The notes beneath the pieces are model-generated. The model did not search any database, was not told where the DNA came from, and saw nothing but the letters and a program-made list of their open reading frames with translations. Positions 14,156 through 27,410 of a DNA stretch of 64,000 nucleotides are shown piece by piece (position 1 is the first letter of the stretch; each line of letters begins with the position of its first letter). The DNA comes from Rhabdochlamydiaceae bacterium (lineage in GTDB: Bacteria; Chlamydiota; Chlamydiia; Chlamydiales; Rhabdochlamydiaceae). The stretch is taken from contig DATIJP010000064.1 of NCBI GenBank assembly GCA_035478495.1, positions 5,385 through 69,384 of the forward strand, in the 5' to 3' direction. The position numbers were made by a program, and so were the translations under genes.

Positions 14156-14851
14156 TTAATGAGATATATGCACTTTATTATCGCTATCTATTGCGATGCG
14201 ACCTTCCGCAATCATTTTAATGGCAGTCAAACAGGCAGGTAGGTCGCTTTGCACCTTCTGCTTTGCTTGATGCAATAAGGCCTTTTGTTTTGTAAGAGGA
14301 TATCCTTCTGTATAATCCACTGAAGGTCCTGTGACAAGGATGGGCCCATTATCTACCCCTTCATCGACTAAAAACACACAAGATGAGGTTTTGGTCTCAC
14401 CTGCTTGAAGCGCAAGATAAACGCTATCGGCCCCGATATATTTTCTTTTTCCTTCCCCGTCAAGAATGGTTAAATCTGCGGGATGCACATTGATGATATT
14501 AAAATGGGACAAAAGCGGCGCTTTAACGAGCCTCATGTAGCCTGCAAGGAGAATCAGATCAATGGAAAATTGGTGCAGAGCCGCACATTCTAAAAGCAAT
14601 CTTACTGCCTCTTCATCATATTCTAGACGAATTTCAGCAGCAGATTTTTTTTCTAATCCTTTTAAGGCAACAAAACGTTGAAAGGAGTGGTCGATGACCG
14701 GAATTTTTTCTAAATGCCCGAGATCTTGAAAGCGACAAGGGCGATCGGATAAAAGGGCTTTGATTTCAAAACAGCCAGGATTTTTTTTTCTCTCTTCTAA
14801 AAGAGCTTCTAAATTACTTCCATGTCCAGAACCAAACACCACAAGATGCAT
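14156..14851 (-). CDS. purN: Phosphoribosylglycinamide formyltransferase
   Basis: Motifs MHLVVFGSGHGSNLEALL, INVHPADL and VFLVDEGVDNGPILV are present. The ORF track extends to 14965, but that start overlaps purD by 83 nt. The homology-consistent start is the ATG at 14851, and 14914 is an alternative. Confidence 0.8.
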   Translation of the reverse strand: MHLVVFGSGHGSNLEALLEERKKNPGCFEIKALLSDRPCRFQDLGHLEKIPVIDHSFQRFVALKGLEKKSAAEIRLEYDEEAVRLLLECAALHQFSIDLILLAGYMRLVKAPLLSHFNIINVHPADLTILDGEGKRKYIGADSVYLALQAGETKTSSCVFLVDEGVDNGPILVTGPSVDYTEGYPLTKQKALLHQAKQKVQSDLPACLTAIKMIAEGRIAIDSDNKVHISH

Positions 14852-14882
14852 CGGGCGATCTTGTTTTGGAGTATAGAGAGGC

Positions 14883-16139
14883 TTAAATGTTGCTAAATTG
14901 ATTGGCGATGTCATGGCGAAAATGGGCTTTTGAAAAATGGATTGATTGAGTAGCCAAATAGGCATGATGAGTGGCCTCTTTTAGAGTAGCGCCGAGTCCG
15001 GTCACTCCAAGAACTCTCCCTCCTGCTGTCATCAGTTCTCCTTTGGTATTTCGTCCTGTCCCTGCATGAAAAATTAAGGTGTTGGGAAAGTTTTTTGCCT
15101 CATCTAATCCTGTGATGATTTCGCCTGTTGTATAATTTCCCGGATACCCTCCTGAGGCCATCACGACGCAGCAAGAAGATAATTGTTTCCAAGAAAGTTT
15201 TTGGGAAGAGAGCTCTTTTTTAGTACAGGCATACATAATTTGACCGAGATCGTTTTCTAATAAAGGCAGCACTGCTTGGGCTTCTGGATCACCAAAACGG
15301 CAGTTGTATTCCAGTAGCATCGGCCCCTTTTGTGTTAACATGAGTCCGAAAAAAAGAATGCCGCAATAGTCAATTCCCTCTTTGCGTAATCCCTCTTTGG
15401 TGCGCTCTAAGATTAACTCCTGGATCTTTTCCATTTCGGAGGAGGTCACAAATGCAGCAGGGGCATAAGCACCCATGCCTCCTGTATTAGGCCCTTGATC
15501 CTGATTGTAAACCTTTTTATGGTCTTGCGAAGGAAGCATAGGAAGAATCTCTTTTCCATCACAAAATGCAAGCAGCGAGATCTCTTTTCCTTGCAAAAGC
15601 TCCTCTAGGACCATTTCTTCCTCTTTGCCCTCCAGCGCTTCTTTTGCCTCTTCTATTGTCTGACAGCTCGTCACCCCTTTGCCTTGTGCAAGTCCGCTAA
15701 CTTTAACAACTATTCCCTTCCACCTGTCAAAATAAGGCGCGCAACTCAAAGAAGCCTCTTTTCTTGTTTTAAAAGTTGCAAAAGAGGCGGTAGGAATCCC
15801 ATATTTGTTCATAAATTGTTTTGCAAAGGCTTTACTGCTTTCAAGTAAGGCCCCTTCTCTAGTGGGGCCAAAAAAAGGAATCCCCGCTTCTTTAAAGGCA
15901 TCTCCCATGCCGCCTGCAAGGAAAATCTCTGGCCCAGCGCACGCCATATCGATCCCGTTTTTTTTGACAAAGTCGATGAGCGCCAAAAAATCAAAGGGAT
16001 TGATAGATGGAGATATTTTTTCACAAAATTCTTCTGTGCCAGGATTACCCGGAATACAATAAACACTATGTCCGGATTGAGATAAGGAGTATGCGATCGC
16101 ATGCTCTCTTCCCCCTGATCCTATGAGCAAAATTTTCAT
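14883..16139 (-). CDS. purD: Phosphoribosylamine--glycine ligase
   Basis: 418 aa with MKILLIGSGGREHAIA, ATP-grasp core and GGMGAYAPA. Confidence 0.9.
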   Translation of the reverse strand: MKILLIGSGGREHAIAYSLSQSGHSVYCIPGNPGTEEFCEKISPSINPFDFLALIDFVKKNGIDMACAGPEIFLAGGMGDAFKEAGIPFFGPTREGALLESSKAFAKQFMNKYGIPTASFATFKTRKEASLSCAPYFDRWKGIVVKVSGLAQGKGVTSCQTIEEAKEALEGKEEEMVLEELLQGKEISLLAFCDGKEILPMLPSQDHKKVYNQDQGPNTGGMGAYAPAAFVTSSEMEKIQELILERTKEGLRKEGIDYCGILFFGLMLTQKGPMLLEYNCRFGDPEAQAVLPLLENDLGQIMYACTKKELSSQKLSWKQLSSCCVVMASGGYPGNYTTGEIITGLDEAKNFPNTLIFHAGTGRNTKGELMTAGGRVLGVTGLGATLKEATHHAYLATQSIHFSKAHFRHDIANQFSNI

Positions 16140-16152
16140 GTCTAATGTTCCC

Positions 16153-17472
16153 CTAATGGTCCATGCTTTTCAAAATTCTGGCAGCAGCTAGAGCGGCATT
16201 GGCAGGATCGATGACAGTCATGGAAGGCACTTTGCTTGGCATTTGCAAAGTGGAATGAATATTTACAAGATAATCACTGTAATCTTTAAAAGGAGGACAT
16301 GCGATCACCGGCCATTTAAGATTTGCAGCTAAAACTCCCGAAAGGGCATTGCTCCTTCCAGCAACTGTGATACATACTAAAGATTCTAAACTTTCATTGT
16401 ATTCGGTAATCAGCTCGAGTGTTTTGCGCGGATCTTTATGGGCAGAAGCATAGACAATAGAAAGTGGAATTTGTTGCTCTTGAAGAGTAGCTACGATCTT
16501 ATCCACATGGGGTTTATCACTTTCACTTCCTGCCCAAATGAGAGCAAATACTCCCTGAATCATCTTGGCCTGTTTTAGATTTGCAATCAGCCGCTTGGAA
16601 ATAGTAGCTGAAGCCGGTTCCAATTTTTGACCAGTGATTGCTTCATAAAGCGAAACATAGCCTGCTCGAACTTTCTCTATAATTTCTGGAGGCAAACTAG
16701 GAATGACTCCACTTCCAGTAAAACCTTGAGAGCGCAACCATTCTCTTAAAAATTCTTTATCGGGAAACTTGACCTCTTTGCGATCGTAATCATCTTGGAA
16801 CCAAAATCTAGATGAATCGGGCGTATGGATCTCATCGATTAAAAGAATTTCTCCATTGGGAGCGATTCCAAATTCATATTTCGTATCCACTAAGATTAAT
16901 CCTTTGGATTTAAGAAGTTCACAACCCCTTTTATAAAGTTTTAAGGCGGCCTCTTTGATATAATTCCAAGTAGAAGCGCTCATTACCCCGGATGCGATGA
17001 GTTCTTCAGCCGTGATATCCTCATCATGTCCCTCTTCACTTTTTGTTGTGGGTGTGACAATGGGCTCTTTGAGTGGATCATTTTGTTTTAAACCTTCAGG
17101 CAGCGGCACACCGCATTTTACTCTTTTCCCTTTCTGATAATCACGCCACATTGAGCCCGCTAAAAATCCTCTTACGATAATTTCTGCTTTGATAGGTTGG
17201 CATCTTTTTGCCAAAAGAACATTTGGATCGGGATGATCAACCAAATGATTGGGAACGAGATCTTTTGTCTGTTCAAACCAGAAGAGCGAAAGCTTTGTTA
17301 ATATAGCCCCCTTGTCCTGAATTGGCTCCGGTAAAATGCGATCAAATACCGAAATCCGGTCACTAGCAACAAGCGCCAATTGATCTTTTAAAAAATAGAT
17401 ATCTCTTACTTTTCCTTTTGTAGGCCTTCCGAGTTCCGGAAGAAAAGTGTTTGGCAGTAGGTGCGTTTGCAT
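16153..17472 (-). CDS. purCE: Bifunctional SAICAR synthetase (N-terminal) / class II-like AIR carboxylase PurE (C-terminal); PAICS-like domain order
   Basis: 439 aa. The N-terminal half has GKVRDIYFLKDQLALVASDRISVFD and LVDTKYEFG (SAICAR synthetase). The C-terminal ~150 aa has AGSESD, ASAHKDP and VAGRSNALSGVLAANLKWPVIACPP. These match the metazoan PAICS/class II strings SAHKGP and VAGRSNGLGPV...PVISCPP, not class I SAHRTP and AGGAAHLPGM. An AGAGGA SD precedes the ATG. Confidence 0.8.
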   Translation of the reverse strand: MQTHLLPNTFLPELGRPTKGKVRDIYFLKDQLALVASDRISVFDRILPEPIQDKGAILTKLSLFWFEQTKDLVPNHLVDHPDPNVLLAKRCQPIKAEIIVRGFLAGSMWRDYQKGKRVKCGVPLPEGLKQNDPLKEPIVTPTTKSEEGHDEDITAEELIASGVMSASTWNYIKEAALKLYKRGCELLKSKGLILVDTKYEFGIAPNGEILLIDEIHTPDSSRFWFQDDYDRKEVKFPDKEFLREWLRSQGFTGSGVIPSLPPEIIEKVRAGYVSLYEAITGQKLEPASATISKRLIANLKQAKMIQGVFALIWAGSESDKPHVDKIVATLQEQQIPLSIVYASAHKDPRKTLELITEYNESLESLVCITVAGRSNALSGVLAANLKWPVIACPPFKDYSDYLVNIHSTLQMPSKVPSMTVIDPANAALAAARILKSMDH

Positions 17473-17495
17473 AGTTCCTCTTTTTTAAAAATTAA

Positions 17496-19142
17496 TTAAT
17501 GATAAAAATAACGTTGCCCTGTAAAGATCATACACATCTCTTGAGCGTCTGCTGCTTGAATGACGCTTAAATCATTGTTCGATCCTCCCGGTTGAATACA
17601 ATATTTAATCCCCTGCGATGCAGCGCTATTGATACTGTCCGCAAAGGGGAAAAAACCATCACTAGCTAATACACAGGTCGATAAATCTTTTTTCGGGTCA
17701 TAAGAAGCAACATTCAGATTTTCTGCACGCAGGTTATCGATCGTTTTAGGAAGTGCAAGCCTTTCAAGACAATCGATTCTATTAGGCTGTCCCGAACCTG
17801 ATCCTATCATCTGATAAGATCCCGGAGCATATTCTCTGACAATGGCAATGGCATTTGATTTTAGAAAATTTACAGCTAAAATTGCAAAACCAAACAGATT
17901 GAGTTGCTCAGGAAGAGGCGCTTTTTTGGTCATGATGCCCCTTGGGCTTGTTTCACTTGAAAGAGAAGGCATAAATAATTCTGCTAATGAACGGGTTGGG
18001 TTTTGTTTTCTTGTTTGGACCAACATTCCCCCACTAATGCTTTTAAAAATGAAAAGATCTTCTCTCTTTTTGCCAAGCTCTAGCAACCTTAAATTGGGTT
18101 TGACCTTTTCTGCCCACTGGATAAATGCGCTTTCAAATTTCGGGGCCACTATAACTTCGATAAATTTTTTAGTAAGAAAGGGGATGAGTTGGCTAGAACA
18201 TTCAAAAGAAAGCCCAATCACACTGCCAAAAGCAGATTTGGAATCACATTCCCAGGCTCTTTCTAATGCTTGCAGCTCATTTTGTCCTGTTGCATATCCG
18301 CAAAGGCTGCCATGCTTTACGATAGAAACACCATAATTGCTGCCTAAGGAAATAAGCTCTTGCGAAGAATAGTAGGCAAGCGTTGCATCTTCATAATTAT
18401 TAAAGGAGATCTGTTTACCGGAGAGAATTTTAGCTTGAGCAAGCCCTCCTGCATTTGCAAATTCATAGATCCATCCTTTTTGATCAGGGTTTTCACCATA
18501 ACGCAGCTCTTGTCCCTTATTAAGCTGAATAAAGTGCATTTTTTCACTTTTCATCCTCTTAGAAAGTTCACTTGCAAGCACCGATTCGTAAGCAGCGCTT
18601 AATTGAATCGCTTTTACAGCCAGAGATTTTCTTGTTTCCAGTGATAAAGAGCCTTCTAATGAAACCAGCTCTTTTAAAAGGGATTCATAATCACCCGGAT
18701 CAACAACTACAGCCACATCAGAAAAATTCTTACAAGCGCTTCTAAGAAGAGTAGATCCTCCAATATCTATCTTTTCGACCACATCTTCTAATCTGTTTTC
18801 AGGATTTAATGCGGCCTTTTCAAAATCATATAAGTTGCAGATGACAAGGTCGATTCCCTCTATCCCCAGTTTTTTAGCTTCCTCTTCATGAACTCCTCGA
18901 CGATAAAGAATTCCTCCCATAATTTTAGGATGCAAAGTTTTTACTCTTCCCCCAAAGCATTCGGGAGATTTTGTATAATCGCTAAGGAGGGTAAAAGGAA
19001 TTTCAAATTTTTTAAGTTCTTCAGCTGTTCCTCCTGAAGCAATCAAATTTATAGAGGGATTGATGGCCAAAAGTCCTTTAAGAAAAAAGCTCAAATGGGT
19101 TTTATCAGTCACGCTTACAAGGACTGTTTGGATTTTTTTCAT
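17496..19142 (-). CDS. purH: Bifunctional AICAR transformylase / IMP cyclohydrolase
   Basis: Motifs VLVSVTDKT, GGTAEEL, VKTLHPKIMGGIL and QPGGSNND are present. The ATG at 19142 (MKKIQ...) has an AAGAGG SD 6 nt upstream. The ORF track start at 19148 abuts that SD. Confidence 0.9.
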   Translation of the reverse strand: MKKIQTVLVSVTDKTHLSFFLKGLLAINPSINLIASGGTAEELKKFEIPFTLLSDYTKSPECFGGRVKTLHPKIMGGILYRRGVHEEEAKKLGIEGIDLVICNLYDFEKAALNPENRLEDVVEKIDIGGSTLLRSACKNFSDVAVVVDPGDYESLLKELVSLEGSLSLETRKSLAVKAIQLSAAYESVLASELSKRMKSEKMHFIQLNKGQELRYGENPDQKGWIYEFANAGGLAQAKILSGKQISFNNYEDATLAYYSSQELISLGSNYGVSIVKHGSLCGYATGQNELQALERAWECDSKSAFGSVIGLSFECSSQLIPFLTKKFIEVIVAPKFESAFIQWAEKVKPNLRLLELGKKREDLFIFKSISGGMLVQTRKQNPTRSLAELFMPSLSSETSPRGIMTKKAPLPEQLNLFGFAILAVNFLKSNAIAIVREYAPGSYQMIGSGSGQPNRIDCLERLALPKTIDNLRAENLNVASYDPKKDLSTCVLASDGFFPFADSINSAASQGIKYCIQPGGSNNDLSVIQAADAQEMCMIFTGQRYFYH

Positions 19143-19152
19143 TATCATCCTC

Positions 19153-19920
19153 TTAATTGAGTGCGTTTTTAAATAGAGATAGACTCTCCGCGTATATAGG
19201 AAGCTCTTTTTGCTGCAGCTTAAGCTGCTCTTTTTTTCGAATCCAATGGGGATCCTGTGTAAAAAAAATAGCTGCTTCCGGATGGGCCATCATCCCCAGA
19301 ATGCGGCCGGTGGGGTCGCAGATGCCAGCAATTGCCTCCGTAGAACCATTGGGATTTTCATGCTGATATCGCAAAACTACCTGCCCATTTTGAAACAAGG
19401 CTTTAATGACCTGATCATTTTGAGCAACAAATTTTCCTTCTCCATGGCGGATCGGTAGATAAAGCGCCTGAAGATTTTGAGTAAAAAGACAGCGCGAAGG
19501 AAGCACCTCATGATCGATCCAGCGGCATTCGAAATGAGCGGAATTGTTAAAAGCTAAGGAGACAGATTGGTTTAAATGGGACTCTAAAGAAGGAAGAAGC
19601 CCTAATTTAACAAGCAGTTGAAAGCCATTGCAGATTCCTAGAATCATTCCTCCACCGGCAACAAAAGAAAAAAGATGATCGCGCAAGCTACAGGCGTGAT
19701 GTGAAAGGCGATTAGCAAGTGCTTTGCCAGCACCCATTTCATCACCAAATGTAAAGCCGCCCGGAAATACAATCAGTTTAAATCTAGACCAATCAAAGCC
19801 GGGGTCAAATAAGCACTTAATGTGCATCGAAGTGACCTTTGCACCTGCACTTTGACAGGCCACCTCCATCTCTCGGTTGCAATTTATTCCATATCCCTCA
19901 AGGACGAGTGCCTCTTTCAT
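19153..19920 (-). CDS. purQ: FGAM synthase, glutamine amidotransferase subunit
   Basis: Triad motifs are present: GICNGFQLL (Cys) and MMAHPE (His/Glu). The start is most likely the ATG at 19920 (MKEALVLEGYGINCNREM), not the ORF-track start at 19941. Confidence 0.85.
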   Translation of the reverse strand: MKEALVLEGYGINCNREMEVACQSAGAKVTSMHIKCLFDPGFDWSRFKLIVFPGGFTFGDEMGAGKALANRLSHHACSLRDHLFSFVAGGGMILGICNGFQLLVKLGLLPSLESHLNQSVSLAFNNSAHFECRWIDHEVLPSRCLFTQNLQALYLPIRHGEGKFVAQNDQVIKALFQNGQVVLRYQHENPNGSTEAIAGICDPTGRILGMMAHPEAAIFFTQDPHWIRKKEQLKLQQKELPIYAESLSLFKNALN

Positions 19921-20079
19921 GAATCTATCCCAATATTCCAAAACTTTGATTTTTGAAAATTTTTTTCACAGATTTTAGTCTCGCTTCGCAGCACATACTT
20001 AGACAAGTAGAGCAAGAAGCGAGACTAAAAGGTGTGGAAAAAAAGGCAAAAAGCATGTTTTTGAAATATTGGGATAGGT

Positions 20080-23031
20080 TCATAAGCTCCTTTTTGCAAA
20101 AGGTTTTTGCCAAGCCTCTTTTAATGTATGAAGCTGCAATTGGATAGTAGGTTCCTGATTTTTTCCCAAAACGGTAAAGGCCTGGTCCTTCCGCACCTTT
20201 CCAATGCAGGAAAGCTCTTCTTTGTTAAAAAGCGACTCAAAATTTGTCACATGGCGAGAGGGTAAAGTCACAATTAATCTGCTGCTTGATTCAGAAAAAA
20301 GAATTTCGGCATCGGATAAGACTCCTTCAACCGGTACTTGACTAAGAGAAATTTCCATTCCAAGTCCGCCACTGAAAGCGGATTCTGCAAGAGCTACCGC
20401 TAATCCGCCGTCAGAACAATCGTGACAAGAAGTAATCATGCCAGCACGAATAGCCCGATGCAGAGCAAGATAGTTTTGCCTAGCCCTATTTGCATTTACA
20501 CTTGGCGCATCTCCCCCTTCAATCTTTTTCATAGCATAGAACTCAGAAGCAAAAAGCTCGTTTTTTGTCATTCCAATGATATAGATTAGATCATCTGCCA
20601 TCTTAACATCCATGGAAATAGCGTTATCGATCGAATCGATCTTTCCGAGTGCAGAAATCAGCAATGTTGGAGGGACTGAAATTTTAATATTGCCGATACA
20701 ATAGTCATTTTTCATGCTATCTTTACCCGATATGATCGGTGTTTTAAACGCCTTGGCATAATGGTAAAGAGCTTTGTTAGCACGAACAAGCTGCGCAAGT
20801 TTAAAAGCTCCATCGGGATTATGAATGGGATTTTCTACGGGATCAGGCCACGAAAAATTATCGAGGATGGCTATCCTTGAAGGATCTGCACCCACAGCAA
20901 CACAATTGCGGATCGCCTCATCAATTGCGACAGCTGTCATGTCGTAAGTATCTTTATCGCTATATTTGGGGCAAATCCCATGGCCAATGACAAGGGCTTC
21001 TTTGCTTGCAAGAAGCTCAAGCGGCTTTAAAATAGCTGCATCGCTTGGACCATCGTGATAAAGCCCTGTAAATGGTTTTAAACAGGTAGCTCCCTGAACT
21101 TCATGATCAAATTGTCGCACCCAATATTCTTTGCTGCACACATTATATCTGCTAAGAATATCTAGCAGCTCTTTCTCGTAGGAAGAGGTAGGAGTGATTT
21201 TTGGAAGCGCATCTTTTTTTGGGGCCCATTCTGCTTTTAAATTCAGTTGCGGCACCCCCTCATGCAGAAAATCAAGATGCAGCAAAGCCACTGTTTTTCC
21301 CTTAAAGAGAACATGAAAATTGCCAGACGCTACGAAGTTGCCGATGGTTACAAGTTCTACTTCGTGAAGATGTGCAAGGGCATAAAGTTCTTGAACTTTG
21401 TCACTGGATACCGCGAGTGTCATACGCTCTTGCGATTCGCTAAGTAAAATTTCCCAAGGAGATAGATTGGCTTGTTTTAAAAGGACCCGATCTAGTTCAA
21501 TTTCACATCCTCCGCAAAATCTTGCCATTTCTCCGACCGACGAGGAGAGTCCTCCCGCTCCATTATCTGTGATCGCGTTATAGAGCTTAAGATCGCGCGC
21601 CTGCAAAAGAAAATCTTGCAGTTTTTTTTGAGTAAAAGGATCTCCAATCTGAACAGCTGTGGTTGGACTTGATTCCGTCAGCCCTTCTGAGGAAAAGGTA
21701 GCGCCATGAATGCCATCTTTTCCTGTTCTTCCGCCTGCAATGATGATCAAATTACCAGGGTAAATCTTCTTTTCATGCGTCTTCTCTCCTTGAATTGCGC
21801 AAGGCATAATGCCGATTGAACCGCAATAGACAAGTGGCTTTCCCAAATATCTATCATCGAATGTAATCGATCCATTGACTGTGGGAATCCCAGACTTATT
21901 GCCGGCATGTTCTATGCCGCGGCAGACTCCTTCAAGGATTCTTTTAGGATGGAGAAGTTTTTGTGGAATTTTTGCAGAAAAATCAGGAGGTGCAAAACAG
22001 AGAATGTCCGTATTAGCGATCAGGCGCGCACCTAAACCCGCACCTAAGATATCTCTATTCACTCCAAGGACCCCTGTGAGGGCGCCTCCGTAGGGATCGA
22101 GGGCGGAAGGGCTATTATGAGTCTCTACTTTAAATGCAAGATTCCATGACTCATTAAAACGGATAATTCCTGCGTTATCTTTAAAAATAGAAACGAGCCA
22201 ATCAATTTCCTCGGATAGTTCTTCGGTAGCTTTCACGATATAAGTGTGAAATAAACTATCAATTTCTTCCTCGTTTCCGTTTTCTTTATAGCTTATCTTT
22301 GCATTGAAAATTTTATGTTTGCAATGTTCGCTCCATGTCTGAGCAATCGCCTCAAGCTCTACATCAGTTGGATCCAATGAAAGAGAGGCTAAGGAGCGAC
22401 TTTCCTTAATCTCAGGACGATCAAAATATTTTTTTATCTCTTTCATCTCTTGAAGAGTTAGAGCCAAATGGCGCCGCTGGCTGAGCTCAATAAGCTCCTC
22501 ATCGCTTAAAACGAGAGAAATCGTCTCAATTTTATCAGAATGCATGGAAAAAATGAGCACATCCTCGATTAAGGGATTCGCTAATAATTGGAGCGCAATT
22601 TTTTCGATCTGATCTTTAGAAAGAGTGCCTGAAAAGAGATATTTCCATCCTGAATAGATCTCTTCATGCGTTTCAAAAGGAGCTTTTAAAAAATCCTCAA
22701 TAGTCGTCCGCGCCGTTTTCCCAGCTGTGTCAGTCACTCCTGGTTTAAATTGCACTTCCACTGCCCAATCTGCTTGCAAGGGAAGCTTTTTTTCTGCGCC
22801 TATTTCAAGGATTGGGTCCAAAAGAAGATGCGTTGTTAGAGCATGGACTTGTGAAGATGTTAGTTTTTTGTGGATCTGATAGAAACGGACAATTTGAAGT
22901 TTTTCTACAGGAATTTTAAAAAACTCGCGAATAGAGTGCAGTAAGTGGTGGGCTTTTGGGTCAGTATGCTCCTCTCGCATACAAATCTCGACCCGATGAG
23001 GGATGAGCGCATTTCTTAAAATTACATCCAT
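20080..23031 (-). CDS. purL: FGAM synthase subunit PurL with two fused N-terminal PurS-like modules (PurS-PurS-PurL)
   Basis: 983 aa. From QTWSEHCKHKIF onward it is a small-type PurL. The ~230-aa N-terminal extension contains two PurS-like repeats. The second reads VEVQFKPGVTDTAGKT...QLLANPLIEDV (compare PurS V.LK.GVLDPQG...LLANPVIEDY). Confidence 0.85.
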   Translation of the reverse strand: MDVILRNALIPHRVEICMREEHTDPKAHHLLHSIREFFKIPVEKLQIVRFYQIHKKLTSSQVHALTTHLLLDPILEIGAEKKLPLQADWAVEVQFKPGVTDTAGKTARTTIEDFLKAPFETHEEIYSGWKYLFSGTLSKDQIEKIALQLLANPLIEDVLIFSMHSDKIETISLVLSDEELIELSQRRHLALTLQEMKEIKKYFDRPEIKESRSLASLSLDPTDVELEAIAQTWSEHCKHKIFNAKISYKENGNEEEIDSLFHTYIVKATEELSEEIDWLVSIFKDNAGIIRFNESWNLAFKVETHNSPSALDPYGGALTGVLGVNRDILGAGLGARLIANTDILCFAPPDFSAKIPQKLLHPKRILEGVCRGIEHAGNKSGIPTVNGSITFDDRYLGKPLVYCGSIGIMPCAIQGEKTHEKKIYPGNLIIIAGGRTGKDGIHGATFSSEGLTESSPTTAVQIGDPFTQKKLQDFLLQARDLKLYNAITDNGAGGLSSSVGEMARFCGGCEIELDRVLLKQANLSPWEILLSESQERMTLAVSSDKVQELYALAHLHEVELVTIGNFVASGNFHVLFKGKTVALLHLDFLHEGVPQLNLKAEWAPKKDALPKITPTSSYEKELLDILSRYNVCSKEYWVRQFDHEVQGATCLKPFTGLYHDGPSDAAILKPLELLASKEALVIGHGICPKYSDKDTYDMTAVAIDEAIRNCVAVGADPSRIAILDNFSWPDPVENPIHNPDGAFKLAQLVRANKALYHYAKAFKTPIISGKDSMKNDYCIGNIKISVPPTLLISALGKIDSIDNAISMDVKMADDLIYIIGMTKNELFASEFYAMKKIEGGDAPSVNANRARQNYLALHRAIRAGMITSCHDCSDGGLAVALAESAFSGGLGMEISLSQVPVEGVLSDAEILFSESSSRLIVTLPSRHVTNFESLFNKEELSCIGKVRKDQAFTVLGKNQEPTIQLQLHTLKEAWQKPFAKRSL

Positions 23032-23990
23032 TCTACACCTACATCTGCATTTCTTATCTCACCGATCACGATGCAATCCTTTCGACTTGCAACAAGCTTA
23101 TGTGCATCGCCCTCTTCCAATGCTGCCACCATTCCGATCCCCATATTAAACACGCGGTACATCTCATCTTCTGCAATATCTCCCCTCTCTTGAAGCCATT
23201 TAAAAATAGGAGGAACTTCCCAGTTGTTTTTACAGATATAAGCTCTTTTCCCTTCAGGAAGAAATCGGGGAACATTTTCCAAAAGACCGCCTCCTGTAAT
23301 ATGGGCCAGCCCTTTAATTTTGAAATTTTTAAGAATATCGAAAATGGTTTTCACATAAATACGTGTAGGGGTCAGCAGGATTTCTCCGATTGTTTTATCG
23401 CTTTGAGGAATCTTTTCCAAAAGGCTTGTTTGGGAATCTTTTAATATTTTCCTTACAAGAGAAAAGCCGTTGCTATGAACACCAGTTGAGACAATGCCAA
23501 CAAGCAAATCTTTCTCTTGAATTTCTTTGCCATCAATGAGCTTTTTTTTAGGGAGGATCCCTACTGCAAACCCTGCCATATCATATTCTTTTTCTTGATA
23601 GAAACCGGGCATTTCAGCGGTTTCTCCGCCTAAAAGAATGCATTCTGCTTCTTTACATCCTTCAATGATTCCGTGAAGAATTGTTTCCGCTTGATCGACA
23701 TCTATTCTCGAGCTTGCCAAATAATCTAAAAGAAAAAGGGGCCTTGCGCCGGTTGTGATCACATCGTTTACACACATCGCAACAAGATCGATTCCGATGG
23801 TCTCATGTTGATTCATTTCAAATGCCAGTTTCAGCTTTGTTCCGACACCATCACAGCTGGCAACTAGATATTGGTCGCCATAAGGATAAAGTCCACTGAA
23901 CCCTCCGATCTCCGGACAGAGATTTTTTAAACGTTCAACGAAGTGATTCCCACGATCGATATCCACACCTGATTTGGCATAACTGCCCAT
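23022..23990 (-). CDS. purM: Phosphoribosylformylglycinamidine cyclo-ligase (AIR synthetase)
   Basis: 322 aa with YAKSGVDIDRGN, CDGVGTKL and HITGGG. An AAGAGGA SD is present. It overlaps the purL start by 10 nt. Confidence 0.9.
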   Translation of the reverse strand: MGSYAKSGVDIDRGNHFVERLKNLCPEIGGFSGLYPYGDQYLVASCDGVGTKLKLAFEMNQHETIGIDLVAMCVNDVITTGARPLFLLDYLASSRIDVDQAETILHGIIEGCKEAECILLGGETAEMPGFYQEKEYDMAGFAVGILPKKKLIDGKEIQEKDLLVGIVSTGVHSNGFSLVRKILKDSQTSLLEKIPQSDKTIGEILLTPTRIYVKTIFDILKNFKIKGLAHITGGGLLENVPRFLPEGKRAYICKNNWEVPPIFKWLQERGDIAEDEMYRVFNMGIGMVAALEEGDAHKLVASRKDCIVIGEIRNADVGVEWM

Positions 23991-24020
23991 AGAAATTCCT
24001 CTTAGTTTTAATAAAATTTT

Positions 24021-25418
24021 TTATTCAAAAATAACGCTATTTTTAATCTCTTCGAGAAATTCGCTTACCTGCTGCGGCGCTCTTCCCACAAGGCGCTCTT
24101 TAGAAGAAAGCATTTGGATCTCTTCTAGAGTAAGCGGCAGGGAACTATTTTCTGCGATTCTAGAAAGTAGATCACTTTTTTCATCTCGATTCCCTTTTTC
24201 CCTGTCCTGCTGAGAAAGAGTTCTTAATGTTTCATGCACCTCTTGCCGGCTTGCCCCTTTTTTCGAAAGGGCCATGAGAACAGGTTCGAGGGACATTGAA
24301 GGCATCTCTTCTTCAAGGTGCTTATTAATCACTTCTTGATTCACTTGCAGATTTTCAGTGATGAATAGGAGTGAATCAAGGATGGCGTCCACGCAAAGAA
24401 AAGCTTCTGGAATACAAAAGCGCCTATTCGCAGAGTCATCAAGACTTCTTTCAAGCCATTGAAGAGAAGCTGTGTATTTGGGATTTTCGGAAAGGGCGAT
24501 CAGATAACGAGCAAGGGAGCAAACTTTTTCGCTTTCGATCGGATTGCGCTTATAAGGCATCGCAGTAGATCCCACCTGATTTTTTTTAAAGGGCTCTGCA
24601 ACTTCTTTTAAATGCACTAAGAGCCTTATGTCGGTGGCCATCTTATGAGCTGAGACTCCAATCCCTGAAAGAAGATCAAGGAGTTGAGAATCCTGTTTTC
24701 TAGTGTAAGTTTGACCAGAAATAGAAAAAACACGATTAAACCCTAATCGCTCTGCAAGCAATTGATCCAGCTCTTTGACCTTTTCATGGTCCCCATTAAA
24801 AAGCTCAAGAAACGAAGCTTGGGTCCCTGTTGCTCCTTTAACTCCTAAAAAACAAAAATTATCCTTTCGATAGTTAAGATCTTTCCAATCCAGCCAAAAA
24901 TCTTGAAGCCAAAGACAAAATCTTTTTCCCACTGTTGTAGGCTGTGCTGGCTGAAAATGGGTATAGCTTAAACAGGCAAGATTGCGATAAAAATCTGCTT
25001 TTTCTAAAAGCGCCTTCATCAGCCGTTTTAATTTTGTTTCAATGAGTTCAAGCGCTTCATGGATCAAAATCATTTCAGCATTATCTGTTACAAGACAAGA
25101 AGTTGCCCCCAGATGAATAATCCCAGCAGCTTCAGGACATTCATCGCCATAAGCTCTGATATGCGCCATGACATCATGTCTGAGTTCTTTTTCATAGTTT
25201 TCCGCTTTTACAAGATCGATGGAGTCAATCTTTTCTTTTAAAAGATCAATTTGTTTTTGCGTAATGGAAAGGCCTAAAAGCATTTCAGCCTCTGCTAATG
25301 CAACCCAAATTTTTCTCCAAGTAGAGAACTTTTTTTGCGCAGAAAAAAGAGTGCGCATTTCACAGCTGCCATATCTTCTAGAAAAAGGAGATTCATAATG
25401 ATCTTCTTTACAGTTCAT
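24021..25418 (-). CDS. purB: Adenylosuccinate lyase
   Basis: 465 aa with SPFSRRYGSCEM, GATSCLVTDNA and the fumarate-lyase signature GSTAMPYKRNP. Its ATG overlaps the purF stop (ATGA). Confidence 0.9.
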   Translation of the reverse strand: MNCKEDHYESPFSRRYGSCEMRTLFSAQKKFSTWRKIWVALAEAEMLLGLSITQKQIDLLKEKIDSIDLVKAENYEKELRHDVMAHIRAYGDECPEAAGIIHLGATSCLVTDNAEMILIHEALELIETKLKRLMKALLEKADFYRNLACLSYTHFQPAQPTTVGKRFCLWLQDFWLDWKDLNYRKDNFCFLGVKGATGTQASFLELFNGDHEKVKELDQLLAERLGFNRVFSISGQTYTRKQDSQLLDLLSGIGVSAHKMATDIRLLVHLKEVAEPFKKNQVGSTAMPYKRNPIESEKVCSLARYLIALSENPKYTASLQWLERSLDDSANRRFCIPEAFLCVDAILDSLLFITENLQVNQEVINKHLEEEMPSMSLEPVLMALSKKGASRQEVHETLRTLSQQDREKGNRDEKSDLLSRIAENSSLPLTLEEIQMLSSKERLVGRAPQQVSEFLEEIKNSVIFE

Positions 25419-26827
25419 AATCTGCTCTCGACTAAACGAAGTTCGGTTAATTCATTCGCATCTTGAATGCATGTGGGATAGTTACCCGTTAAACAGGCTG
25501 TACAGAGATCAGGGAGTCCCACACTCTCTTTAAAATCCTCAACGCTATTATAAACAAGTCCATCGATATCAAGTGCTTTAGAAATTTCTTCAAGACTTTT
25601 TCCCCATGCGATGAGCTCCTCTTGACTTGGAAAATCAATTCCATAGTAACAAGGATAAAGCACTTGAGGATAAGTAGAAGCAAAAAAGATCTTTTTCGCT
25701 CCTGCTTTTCTCGCTAAATAGACAGCTTGTTTGGAAACTGTCCCTCTTACAATGCTATCGTCCACCAGAAGAATCTTCTTATCTTTAAATACGGAATTGA
25801 CAGTAGAAAGTTTCGATATAACTGCCTTTTTTCGACTATCTTGTGTAGGCATAATGAATGTTCTTCCCACATTATCTTGTTTTAAAAACCCTTCTTCTAA
25901 AGGGATATTTAAATCCCTGGCTAATCCTAAAGCTGAAGGTCTTGCCGTATCAGGAATAGGAATGACCACATCTATTTTAAATCCAGCCTTTTTAACATTT
26001 CTAGCCAAAGATTGACCCAATCGAAATCGAATTTGATAGACATCGGTCCCTTCGATCATTGCATTAGGTTTACAAAAATAGTTAAACTCAAAACTACAGT
26101 GGCTATGTTTTTGCTCATTTAAGTCAGCTTGATGGAGCCGATAGTCTTGATCGATAAAGAGTAGTTGACCAGGTTTAACATCGCAAATATTTTGTACATC
26201 TAATTGAACTAATGGACCTGCCTCGGACGAGAAAAAATGCGCTTTTCCCTTCTGTTTTGTTCCATATAAAAAGGGTCTAAATCCAAAAGAGTCTCGAAAA
26301 GCAAAAAGCCCAAAGCCCTCAATAATTCCCAGAATTGAATAGGCGCCTACAACGCGGGAGTGGACCTCTTCCACAGCCCTAGAAAGAGAATCAAATGACA
26401 TTTCTTCTTGCAAATGAGAAAAAAGTATTTTCAAAATGACTTCTGTGTCCGATGTGGTTTCAAAATCAGCTCCTTCTGCCATTAATTCCCGTTTTAGAGA
26501 AATATAGTTGGTGATATTTCCGTTGTGAACAATAGAGAGGGTGAGCTTGTTTTTACTGATGACTAGAGGCTGTACCTCTTGAATACTATTCTTCCCGGCT
26601 GTTGCATAACGTAAATGACCGATGCCCCATGAACCTTCTGGAAGAGGCTGGAAAGAAAAAACCTGATGAACAAGGCCACGATTTTTCAGTAGGGTCGATT
26701 TTTTTTTAGATGCATCATAGATAAAAATCCCTGCCCCGTTCTGACCCCGATGTTGCAAGAGATTTAATCCTTGCAAAAGATTTTCGGCAGCTCTTTCTTT
26801 TCCTATGATTCCAAAAATACCGCACAT
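25415..26827 (-). CDS. purF: Amidophosphoribosyltransferase
   Basis: 470 aa with the Ntn N-terminus MCGIFGIIG and the PRPP loop ILLVDDSIVRGT. Confidence 0.9.
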   Translation of the reverse strand: MCGIFGIIGKERAAENLLQGLNLLQHRGQNGAGIFIYDASKKKSTLLKNRGLVHQVFSFQPLPEGSWGIGHLRYATAGKNSIQEVQPLVISKNKLTLSIVHNGNITNYISLKRELMAEGADFETTSDTEVILKILFSHLQEEMSFDSLSRAVEEVHSRVVGAYSILGIIEGFGLFAFRDSFGFRPFLYGTKQKGKAHFFSSEAGPLVQLDVQNICDVKPGQLLFIDQDYRLHQADLNEQKHSHCSFEFNYFCKPNAMIEGTDVYQIRFRLGQSLARNVKKAGFKIDVVIPIPDTARPSALGLARDLNIPLEEGFLKQDNVGRTFIMPTQDSRKKAVISKLSTVNSVFKDKKILLVDDSIVRGTVSKQAVYLARKAGAKKIFFASTYPQVLYPCYYGIDFPSQEELIAWGKSLEEISKALDIDGLVYNSVEDFKESVGLPDLCTACLTGNYPTCIQDANELTELRLVESRL

Positions 26828-26897: not shown

Positions 26898-27410
26898 TTA
26901 AATCGGATCGATGTAGAGCTTTTGAATCCAGTAGTGAGTTCCTGCATTCAAAAGACGGATAATAATTTTATTTTCCCCTTCATTGAGCTGAATAGGAAAA
27001 TAATCCTCGCGCCAGCCATTGACTGCTGGAAAGAATCGCCGTGCTATGATCTTACCATTCACCTTAATTGAAATCGGAGAATTTCCTGGCAGAGATGAAA
27101 GGTGGCTTAAAATAAGGTTCCAACTTTTTTCCGCTTCTTCTTTTGTTAAAACAGGTTTTATTTCGAGATAACTATGATAAGGAATCGCCATCATCCAATT
27201 CCAGGGATAATAGCGATTAAACCATACTCCTGGTCCCGTTTCCGCAGAGATATTTCCCGCTTCAGAAGTGATCACATCATTAGCAAAGTTCAAGTGGAAT
27301 GCATGCGGAAGTTCCCAATGCGGAACTGGTGCCGTAGCAACCATCTCTACAGCTGGCTTTTCTACGGCACTCATATCGATCGTGTTCAATGCAAGCAATA
27401 ATTCAAACAT
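26898..27410 (-). CDS. Hypothetical 170-aa protein, first gene of the purine operon
   Basis: ATG start with an AGGAG SD 5 nt upstream. It lies 70 nt upstream of purF on the same strand. I recognise no family motif. The C-terminal part (SIKVNGKII...QLNEGENKIIIRLLN) looks like a beta-sandwich. Confidence 0.5.
   Translation of the reverse strand: MFELLLALNTIDMSAVEKPAVEMVATAPVPHWELPHAFHLNFANDVITSEAGNISAETGPGVWFNRYYPWNWMMAIPYHSYLEIKPVLTKEEAEKSWNLILSHLSSLPGNSPISIKVNGKIIARRFFPAVNGWREDYFPIQLNEGENKIIIRLLNAGTHYWIQKLYIDPI

Follow-up and report, generated by a model that had tools for sequence, protein, structure and literature searches.

A PurC-PurE fusion with a predicted class II AIR carboxylase domain in the purine operon of a Rhabdochlamydiaceae bacterium

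Results

Organization of the purine biosynthesis operon

The analyzed DNA (the window) is a stretch of 64,000 nucleotides from the genome of a Rhabdochlamydiaceae bacterium (assembly GCA_035478495.1, contig DATIJP010000064.1, positions 5,385 to 69,384), and all coordinates of this genome given below refer to it. Using Pfam and NCBIfam models together with synteny, a de novo IMP operon composed of purF, purB, purM, purS-S-L, purQ, purH, purCE, purD and a purN-like gene was distinguished on the minus strand (14156-26827). It spans all steps from PRPP to IMP apart from a separate PurE/PurK step, and purCE, a fusion of purC with a purE of predicted class II, is placed between purH and purD in this tight gene cluster.

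The operon is syntenic with six other chlamydial loci, its gene order is common to five chlamydial families, and the purCE fusion occupies the same operon position in five other chlamydial genomes. The GC content of the operon is 41.2%, and that of the rest of the window 41.1%, a comparison that revealed no compositional trace of recent transfer. A composition like that of the surroundings and a gene order common to five families point to an old chlamydial trait kept by few lineages rather than to a recent import, and the fusion most likely predates the divergence of the chlamydial pur operons.

Several other features of the cluster were recorded. The operon is headed here by purF and purB (24021-26827), while at five other loci (L006, L007, L097, L098 and L101) purF stands at the tail, behind purN, and purB is located outside the cluster; in L101, the closest relative, a PRPP synthetase gene comes after purN. 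The 170-aa ORF directly upstream of purF (26898-27410, minus strand) gave no Pfam or NCBIfam match. The PurL protein (20080-23031, minus strand; 983 aa) carries about 90 additional N-terminal residues and a PurS-like segment (Pfam PurS, aa 90-158) fused to a small-type PurL, with purQ remaining a separate gene; this long form of PurL is syntenic in every chlamydial locus examined. The purN-like ORF (14156-14965, minus strand) scores 70.7 bits, far under the PurN cut-off of 150.1 bits. Read from its first ATG it overlaps purD by 83 nt, and its formyltransferase domain begins at aa 39, so that the true start is probably later than the first ATG.

The purCE gene and its product

The fusion gene occupies positions 16153-17472, exactly as given in a preliminary description of this DNA, which did not state the strand; the gene lies on the minus strand, and many stop codons are present on the plus strand across the same interval. 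It is one unbroken ORF of 439 codons plus a TAG stop (16153-16155), with no stop or change of frame over 1320 nt, and starts with the ATG at 17472, preceded at a distance of 3 nt by a GAGGA Shine-Dalgarno sequence. Pfam recognizes two domains in the 439-aa protein, SAICAR_synt (aa 19-248; 3.5e-72) and AIRC (aa 312-438; 2.7e-31). Both the translation and these matches bear out the order proposed earlier, i.e., PurC at the N-terminus and PurE at the C-terminus, as in animal PAICS. The AF2 model of the fusion protein, built with 90 homologues as input, has a pLDDT of 93.4 and a pTM of 0.89. The PurC half (aa 1-300; 16573-17472, minus strand) is assigned to the long-type SAICAR synthetases by NCBIfam models, by matches to yeast Ade1 and Mycobacterium-type PurC of M. 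abscessus, and by Foldseek, and the PurE half (aa 307-439; 16156-16554, minus strand) is a predicted class II AIR carboxylase domain according to PF00731 (108.5 bits; cut-off 30), its match to TdPurE, superposition and a phylogenetic tree.

Class assignment of the PurE domain

A PDB sequence search with the C-terminal 144 aa returned TdPurE (4e-21), Bombyx PAICS (3e-20) and human PAICS (6e-17), and the best class I enzyme at 1e-10, most class I enzymes lying between 1e-6 and 1e-4. For comparison of motifs, the domain was placed in an alignment with relatives (114 fused, 121 stand-alone) and with reference proteins, of which four (from E. coli and Coxiella, and two chlamydial PurEs) represent class I.

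Four minus-strand segments are of particular importance: (i) the GSESD loop (G315-D319; 16516-16530), for which alignment with PAICS and TdPurE predicts ribose and phosphate binding; (ii) SAHK (S343, A344, H345 and K346; 16435-16446), with the predicted catalytic histidine and a class II-specific lysine, replaced by arginine in class I; (iii) the AGRSNAL loop (A371-L377; 16342-16362), i.e., the class II "70s loop", which in class I reads AGGAAHLPG; and (iv) ACPP (A391-P394; 16291-16302), a class II-conserved segment, with GVP as its class I counterpart. The longer strings ASAHKDP, VAGRSNALSGV and WPVIACPP, quoted in the preliminary description, are all present at segments (ii) to (iv). Compared with the motifs of this protein (GSESD, SAHKDP, VAGRSNALSG and ACPP), those at the same sites of TdPurE are GSSSD, SAHKTA, IAGRSNALSG and ACPP, and those of human PAICS are GSTSD, SAHKGP, VAGRSNGLGP and SCPP, whereas the four class I proteins have SAHRTP, AGGAAHLPG and GVP. 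The AGRSNAL loop is thus identical to that of TdPurE. SAHK was found in 235/235 of the fused or stand-alone relatives, as against SAHR in 4/4 class I references, and D319, N375 and L377 are invariant across 90 fused homologues.

For human PAICS, 18 residues of the AIRc active site, together with their roles, have been listed, and the equivalent of the GSESD loop (G273-D277) takes part in ribose/phosphate binding (PMC9376930). Fifteen of the 18 are identical in the PurE half, including the general base H303 (H345 here) and K304 (K346). The three differences in the active-site shell are M272 to A, T275 to E and G334 to A, the last of which is also present in the characterized TdPurE.

In a tree of 70 PurE domains (IQ-TREE, LG+C20) class I and class II are split with 100/100 support; the class II ingroup contains TdPurE and two PAICS sequences, and the domain studied here falls within it, in a chlamydial-type fused clade (97/88). 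The PurE half of the AF2 model superposes on TdPurE (3rg8) at 1.3 Å over 129 residues. The class I model TIGR01162 gave 90.2 bits, under its cut-off of 149.6 bits, and identity with LarB was rejected (18.8 bits; cut-off 175). None of the elements of the class I signature (SAHR, AAHLPG and a PurK partner) was found for this domain or in its genome. By its motifs, tree position and model fit, the PurE half is a predicted class II PurE (AIR carboxylase, EC 4.1.1.21), and the class II assignment made earlier from short strings is upheld by each of these comparisons.

Among known proteins, TdPurE of Treponema denticola (PDB 3rg8, 3rgg and 5c5d) offers the closest parallel for this half, with shared SAHK, AGRSNALSG and ACPP, ~40% identity and a host that is likewise a bacterium without purK; unlike the domain described here, which follows the C-terminus of PurC in the same chain, TdPurE is a stand-alone protein of 159 aa. 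The class I PurE and PurK pairs (E. coli b0523/b0522 and those of genomes G014 and G158, see below) share the PurE fold, the catalytic histidine and the supply of CAIR to PurC, but differ in SAHR and AGGAAHLPG, in the ATP-dependent PurK with its N5-CAIR, and in their position on the other side of the 100/100 split.

The PurC domain and the relation to animal PAICS

The PurC half is recognized by NF010568 (283.4 bits; cut-off 251) and TIGR00081 (219.3 bits; cut-off 189.9), and scores 369 bits with NF009251 (cut-off 371). Its similarity to yeast Ade1 (193.6 bits; 4e-56) and M. abscessus PurC (about 172 bits; 2e-49) contrasts with values of 35.7 bits for the PurC part of Bombyx PAICS and 19.3 bits for that of human PAICS, both lower than those for short archaeal and bacterial PurCs. 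In Foldseek the PurC half matched Ade1 with a TM of 0.82-0.85 at 2.2-2.8 Å. Long-type PurCs as a group (Ade1 1a48, 1obg and 2cnq; M. abscessus 3r9r and 6yvq) share 36-38% identity with it and the same fold (TM 0.81-0.85; 2.2-3.4 Å over about 300 residues), but they have no PurE domain, and their organisms use class I PurE with PurK. The earlier suggestion that this half is of the long type and not of the PAICS type is therefore in agreement with the scores.

Animal PAICS (human 2h31 and 6yb8, Bombyx mori 4ja0) resembles the fusion protein in combining an N-terminal SAICAR synthetase and a C-terminal class II AIR carboxylase in one chain, in 15 of the 18 AIRc active-site residues and, by analogy, in a presumed independence from PurK. 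It differs in the PurC subfamily, the PurC half here being about 40 residues longer than the PAICS type (~260 aa), and in the predicted domain arrangement: the full-length AF2 monomer aligned with PAICS over 444 columns only at about 21 Å rmsd and a TM of about 0.5.

These data bear on the question of whether the fusion shares its descent with PAICS, either because both go back to a single ancestral PurC-PurE(II) fusion or because the gene passed between a bacterium and an early animal lineage. Both have the same order of domains and a class II PurE, an AU test did not reject a single clade of PAICS and chlamydial fused PurE domains (p = 0.40), and a eukaryote, Amoebophrya, apparently has PurC-PurE(II) units of this family. 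However, the PurC halves belong to different subfamilies and superposition of the full-length model on PAICS leaves an rmsd of about 21 Å; moreover, in the best PurE tree the stand-alone TdPurE and PAICS group together (97/89), and at least four changes are forced by the mixing of fused and stand-alone forms. We consider shared descent unlikely and regard the fusion as probably separate in origin from PAICS, as had been proposed. The case for independence is carried by the PurC subfamily; the PurE tree, which leaves the joint clade unrejected, cannot by itself show it.

Absence of PurK and of a second PurE

The genome assembly (1.79 Mb) is 94.5% complete, and the only PF00731 match in it is the fusion gene. 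Pfam and NCBIfam searches of the neighboring genes detected no purK in the operon, as had been noted before, and a search of the whole 94.5%-complete genome detected none elsewhere, the best match to the PurK model reaching 36.7 bits (cut-off 326). Weak ATP-grasp matches were rejected as PurK; they comprise PurD, two frames of the size of CarB (1064 aa) and of biotin carboxylase (453 aa), and an ORF of 392 aa that begins like a D-Ala-D-Ala ligase. The fusion protein is the sole candidate for step 6 of the pathway in this genome.

Among 201 sampled genomes of the phylum, eight gave any match to the fusion protein. A full fusion without PurK was found in G132 (a single contig), G076 and G104, and among chlamydial MAGs, Wirthbacteria and Peregrinibacteria there are further PurK-less genomes whose class II PurE is intact. 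Overall, PurK occurs in 0/11 genomes whose intact class II purE is fused to purC or lies next to it (G000, G132, G076, G104 (= G204), G201, G202, G203, G205, G206, G208 and G209), and in 4/4 genomes with a class I PurE (G014, G158, G207 and G210); as related genomes are not independent, this tally is a pattern and not a statistic. Apparent tblastn fusions in the PurK-containing Caldilineaceae and Levybacteria are not counter-examples, since inspection of the ORFs revealed purC beside a separate class I purE. In a Waddliaceae MAG (G203), whose operon (L009) lacks purN between purD and purF, a 399-aa frame scored 203 bits with the PurK model; it was rejected as PurK on account of this sub-cut-off score and the missing purN, and probably represents a PurT-type GAR transformylase replacing PurN.

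A different function of the PurE domain, that of an N5-CAIR mutase, would require either that its substrate arises without an enzyme when bicarbonate is high or that a PurK supplying it lies in the ~5% of the genome missing from the assembly. Some archaea devoid of PurK do possess a PurE resembling class I (PMC3261824), and the incompleteness of the assembly leaves room for such a gene. Nevertheless, all class-discriminating motifs are those of class II, the class II clade that holds the domain is separated with full (100/100) support, the class I score is below its cut-off, and the single-contig genome G132 has the same fusion with no PurK. In addition, Tranchimand et al., in 2011, reportedly found that TdPurE, with the same motifs, does not use N5-CAIR. 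We judge mutase activity to be very unlikely, and carboxylation of AIR remains the preferred function.

Degenerate PurE domains in related operons

In two of the class I genomes, G014 and G158, the same syntenic operon encodes a PurC with a truncated C-terminal PurE relic, in which GSxSD, SAHK, AGRSNAL and ACPP are all lost (L096, G158:C3, 5659-6897, minus strand; L097, G014:C6, 7172-8386). Elsewhere these genomes carry a class I purE (SAHRTPDR and AGAGGAAHLPGM; PF00731 at 205-208 bits) followed directly by purK, whose product exceeds the PurK cut-off with 385 and 410 bits (pair loci L091, 1393-3041, and L090, 1495-3047). The same decay of PurE is visible in the database proteins P0084, P0085, P0086, P0092, P0101 and P0111. 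This distribution argues that the class II domain may decay after class I PurE and PurK have taken over, and that the intact domain of the present protein would be a working AIR-to-CAIR enzyme.

Comparison with an orthologue of 82% identity, which comes from an independent sample, gave a pN of 0.072 for the PurE half and 0.134 for the PurC half, with an omega of ~0.02-0.07 at saturated dS. The fusion gene is under purifying selection, with stronger constraint on the PurE half than on the PurC half.

The relics raise the possibility that the PurE domain is also here a non-catalytic scaffold, with CAIR or purines obtained from the host via transporters and the operon partly redundant. Dead domains do exist within the same protein family, and chlamydiae are generally nucleotide parasites (PMC4333871). 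We give this explanation very little credence: the catalytic residues are all intact, in the more conserved half of the protein; a purE-purK pair stands in for the lost domain in every relic lineage and is absent from this genome; and without the AIR-to-CAIR step the operon, complete in the rest of its 10 steps, would serve no purpose. Apart from catalysis, the class II PurE may double as an oligomerization core arranging PurC into a PAICS-like channelling particle that evolved convergently. We offer this tentatively, as a rather doubtful suggestion; such a role would explain why a dead relic is kept on PurC in G014, G158 and several database proteins.

Distribution and precursors of the fusion

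Over 100 proteins in the databases, 430-470 aa in length, have the same two-domain frame, with 45-82% identity, and single-frame fusions occur in Chlamydiota, Wirthbacteria and proteins labelled as Woesearchaeota and Beckwithbacteria. With the PurE domain as query, 1216 relatives at E <= 1e-3 were retrieved from 1.8 billion cluster representatives, among them (i) stand-alone proteins of ~130-190 aa, (ii) PurC-PurE proteins of ~430-490 aa and (iii) a large set of PurN-PurC-PurE proteins of ~600-690 aa. Triple fusions with a class II PurE are exemplified by P0244, P0246, P0261, P0264 and P0285; two of the P0244 cluster members have TARA Oceans (marine metagenome) names. In a 1068-aa protein of the parasitic alveolate Amoebophrya sp. 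(P0320), the PurC and AIRC families each match two stretches, and the protein apparently consists of two tandem PurC-PurE(class II) units of the same family, which would mean that non-animal eukaryotes also carry this type of fusion.

In Peregrinibacteria/Gracilibacteria, purC ends with TAA and the class II purE starts at its own ATG 3-30 nt downstream. Recoding of a TGA between the two genes was rejected, because the stop is TAA followed by a fresh ATG and the genes are separate. Such an adjacent purC-purE(II) pair is a plausible precursor state of the fusion.

Although these separate genes lie so close together, and in Caldilineaceae and Levybacteria distinct genes were falsely united by tblastn, there is next to no likelihood that two adjacent genes were merged into the single frame by an error of assembly or gene calling, since no stop or frame change interrupts its 1320 nt, the junction KRLIANLKQAKMIQGVFALIWAGSESD aligns without gaps to the 82%-identical orthologue and about 90 fused proteins, the linker helix is modelled confidently by AF2, and the same fusion recurs in the database proteins and five chlamydial genomes mentioned above.

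Discussion

Proposed function of the fusion protein

The data presented above establish the identity of both domains, the class II signature, the lack of PurK and of another PurE, the purifying selection and the operon context. Beyond them, and by analogy with characterized enzymes, we propose that the product of purCE is very probably a bifunctional enzyme of purine steps 6 and 7, in which a class II PurE would carboxylate AIR with CO2 and a long-type PurC would ligate the resulting CAIR. The C-terminal domain would transfer CO2 directly onto AIR, yielding CAIR without ATP, PurK or N5-CAIR, and the N-terminal domain would convert CAIR, aspartate and ATP into SAICAR. Judging from the biochemistry of TdPurE and PAICS, the carboxyl donor would be CO2 and not bicarbonate or ATP, H345 would deprotonate C4 of the isoCAIR intermediate, and K346 together with the GSESD loop would hold the phosphate and ribose.

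The union of both domains in one chain may keep CAIR, which is labile and thermodynamically unfavored, beside the ATP-driven PurC and in this way pull the reversible carboxylation forward; the channelling logic would be the same as that proposed for animal PAICS. A CO2-rich intracellular niche would favor a route free of PurK. As for its origin, the most likely source of the fusion would be a purC and a purE(II) gene lying close together, as found in Peregrinibacteria.

Significance

The enzyme chemistry and the bacterial class II PurE are already known, the fused family is large, and since this architecture is common in prokaryotic databases, the novelty of the finding is modest. A literature search of partial coverage found no published description of a prokaryotic PurC-PurE(II) fusion, which is absence of evidence only. 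In the source annotations the fused proteins are named "SAICAR synthase" or, wrongly, "PurCD". Automated pathway reconstructions based on the present annotation would score these chlamydiae and CPR bacteria as lacking the AIR-to-CAIR step and may class them as purine auxotrophs, and the correction of pathway annotation is the main practical value of the finding.

The chlamydial loci also provide an example of non-orthologous enzyme replacement, as within one syntenic operon an intact or dead PurE alternates with the absence or presence of class I purE and purK, and they exemplify the repeated fusion of two consecutive purine steps. Inhibitors of PurK and class I PurE, which have been proposed as antimicrobials, would miss organisms of this type. 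According to the classical view, Chlamydiales cannot make IMP (PMC4333871). Recognition of the class II domain would give this organism a complete, ATP-saving 10-step route to IMP of the animal type, as predicted from its gene content.
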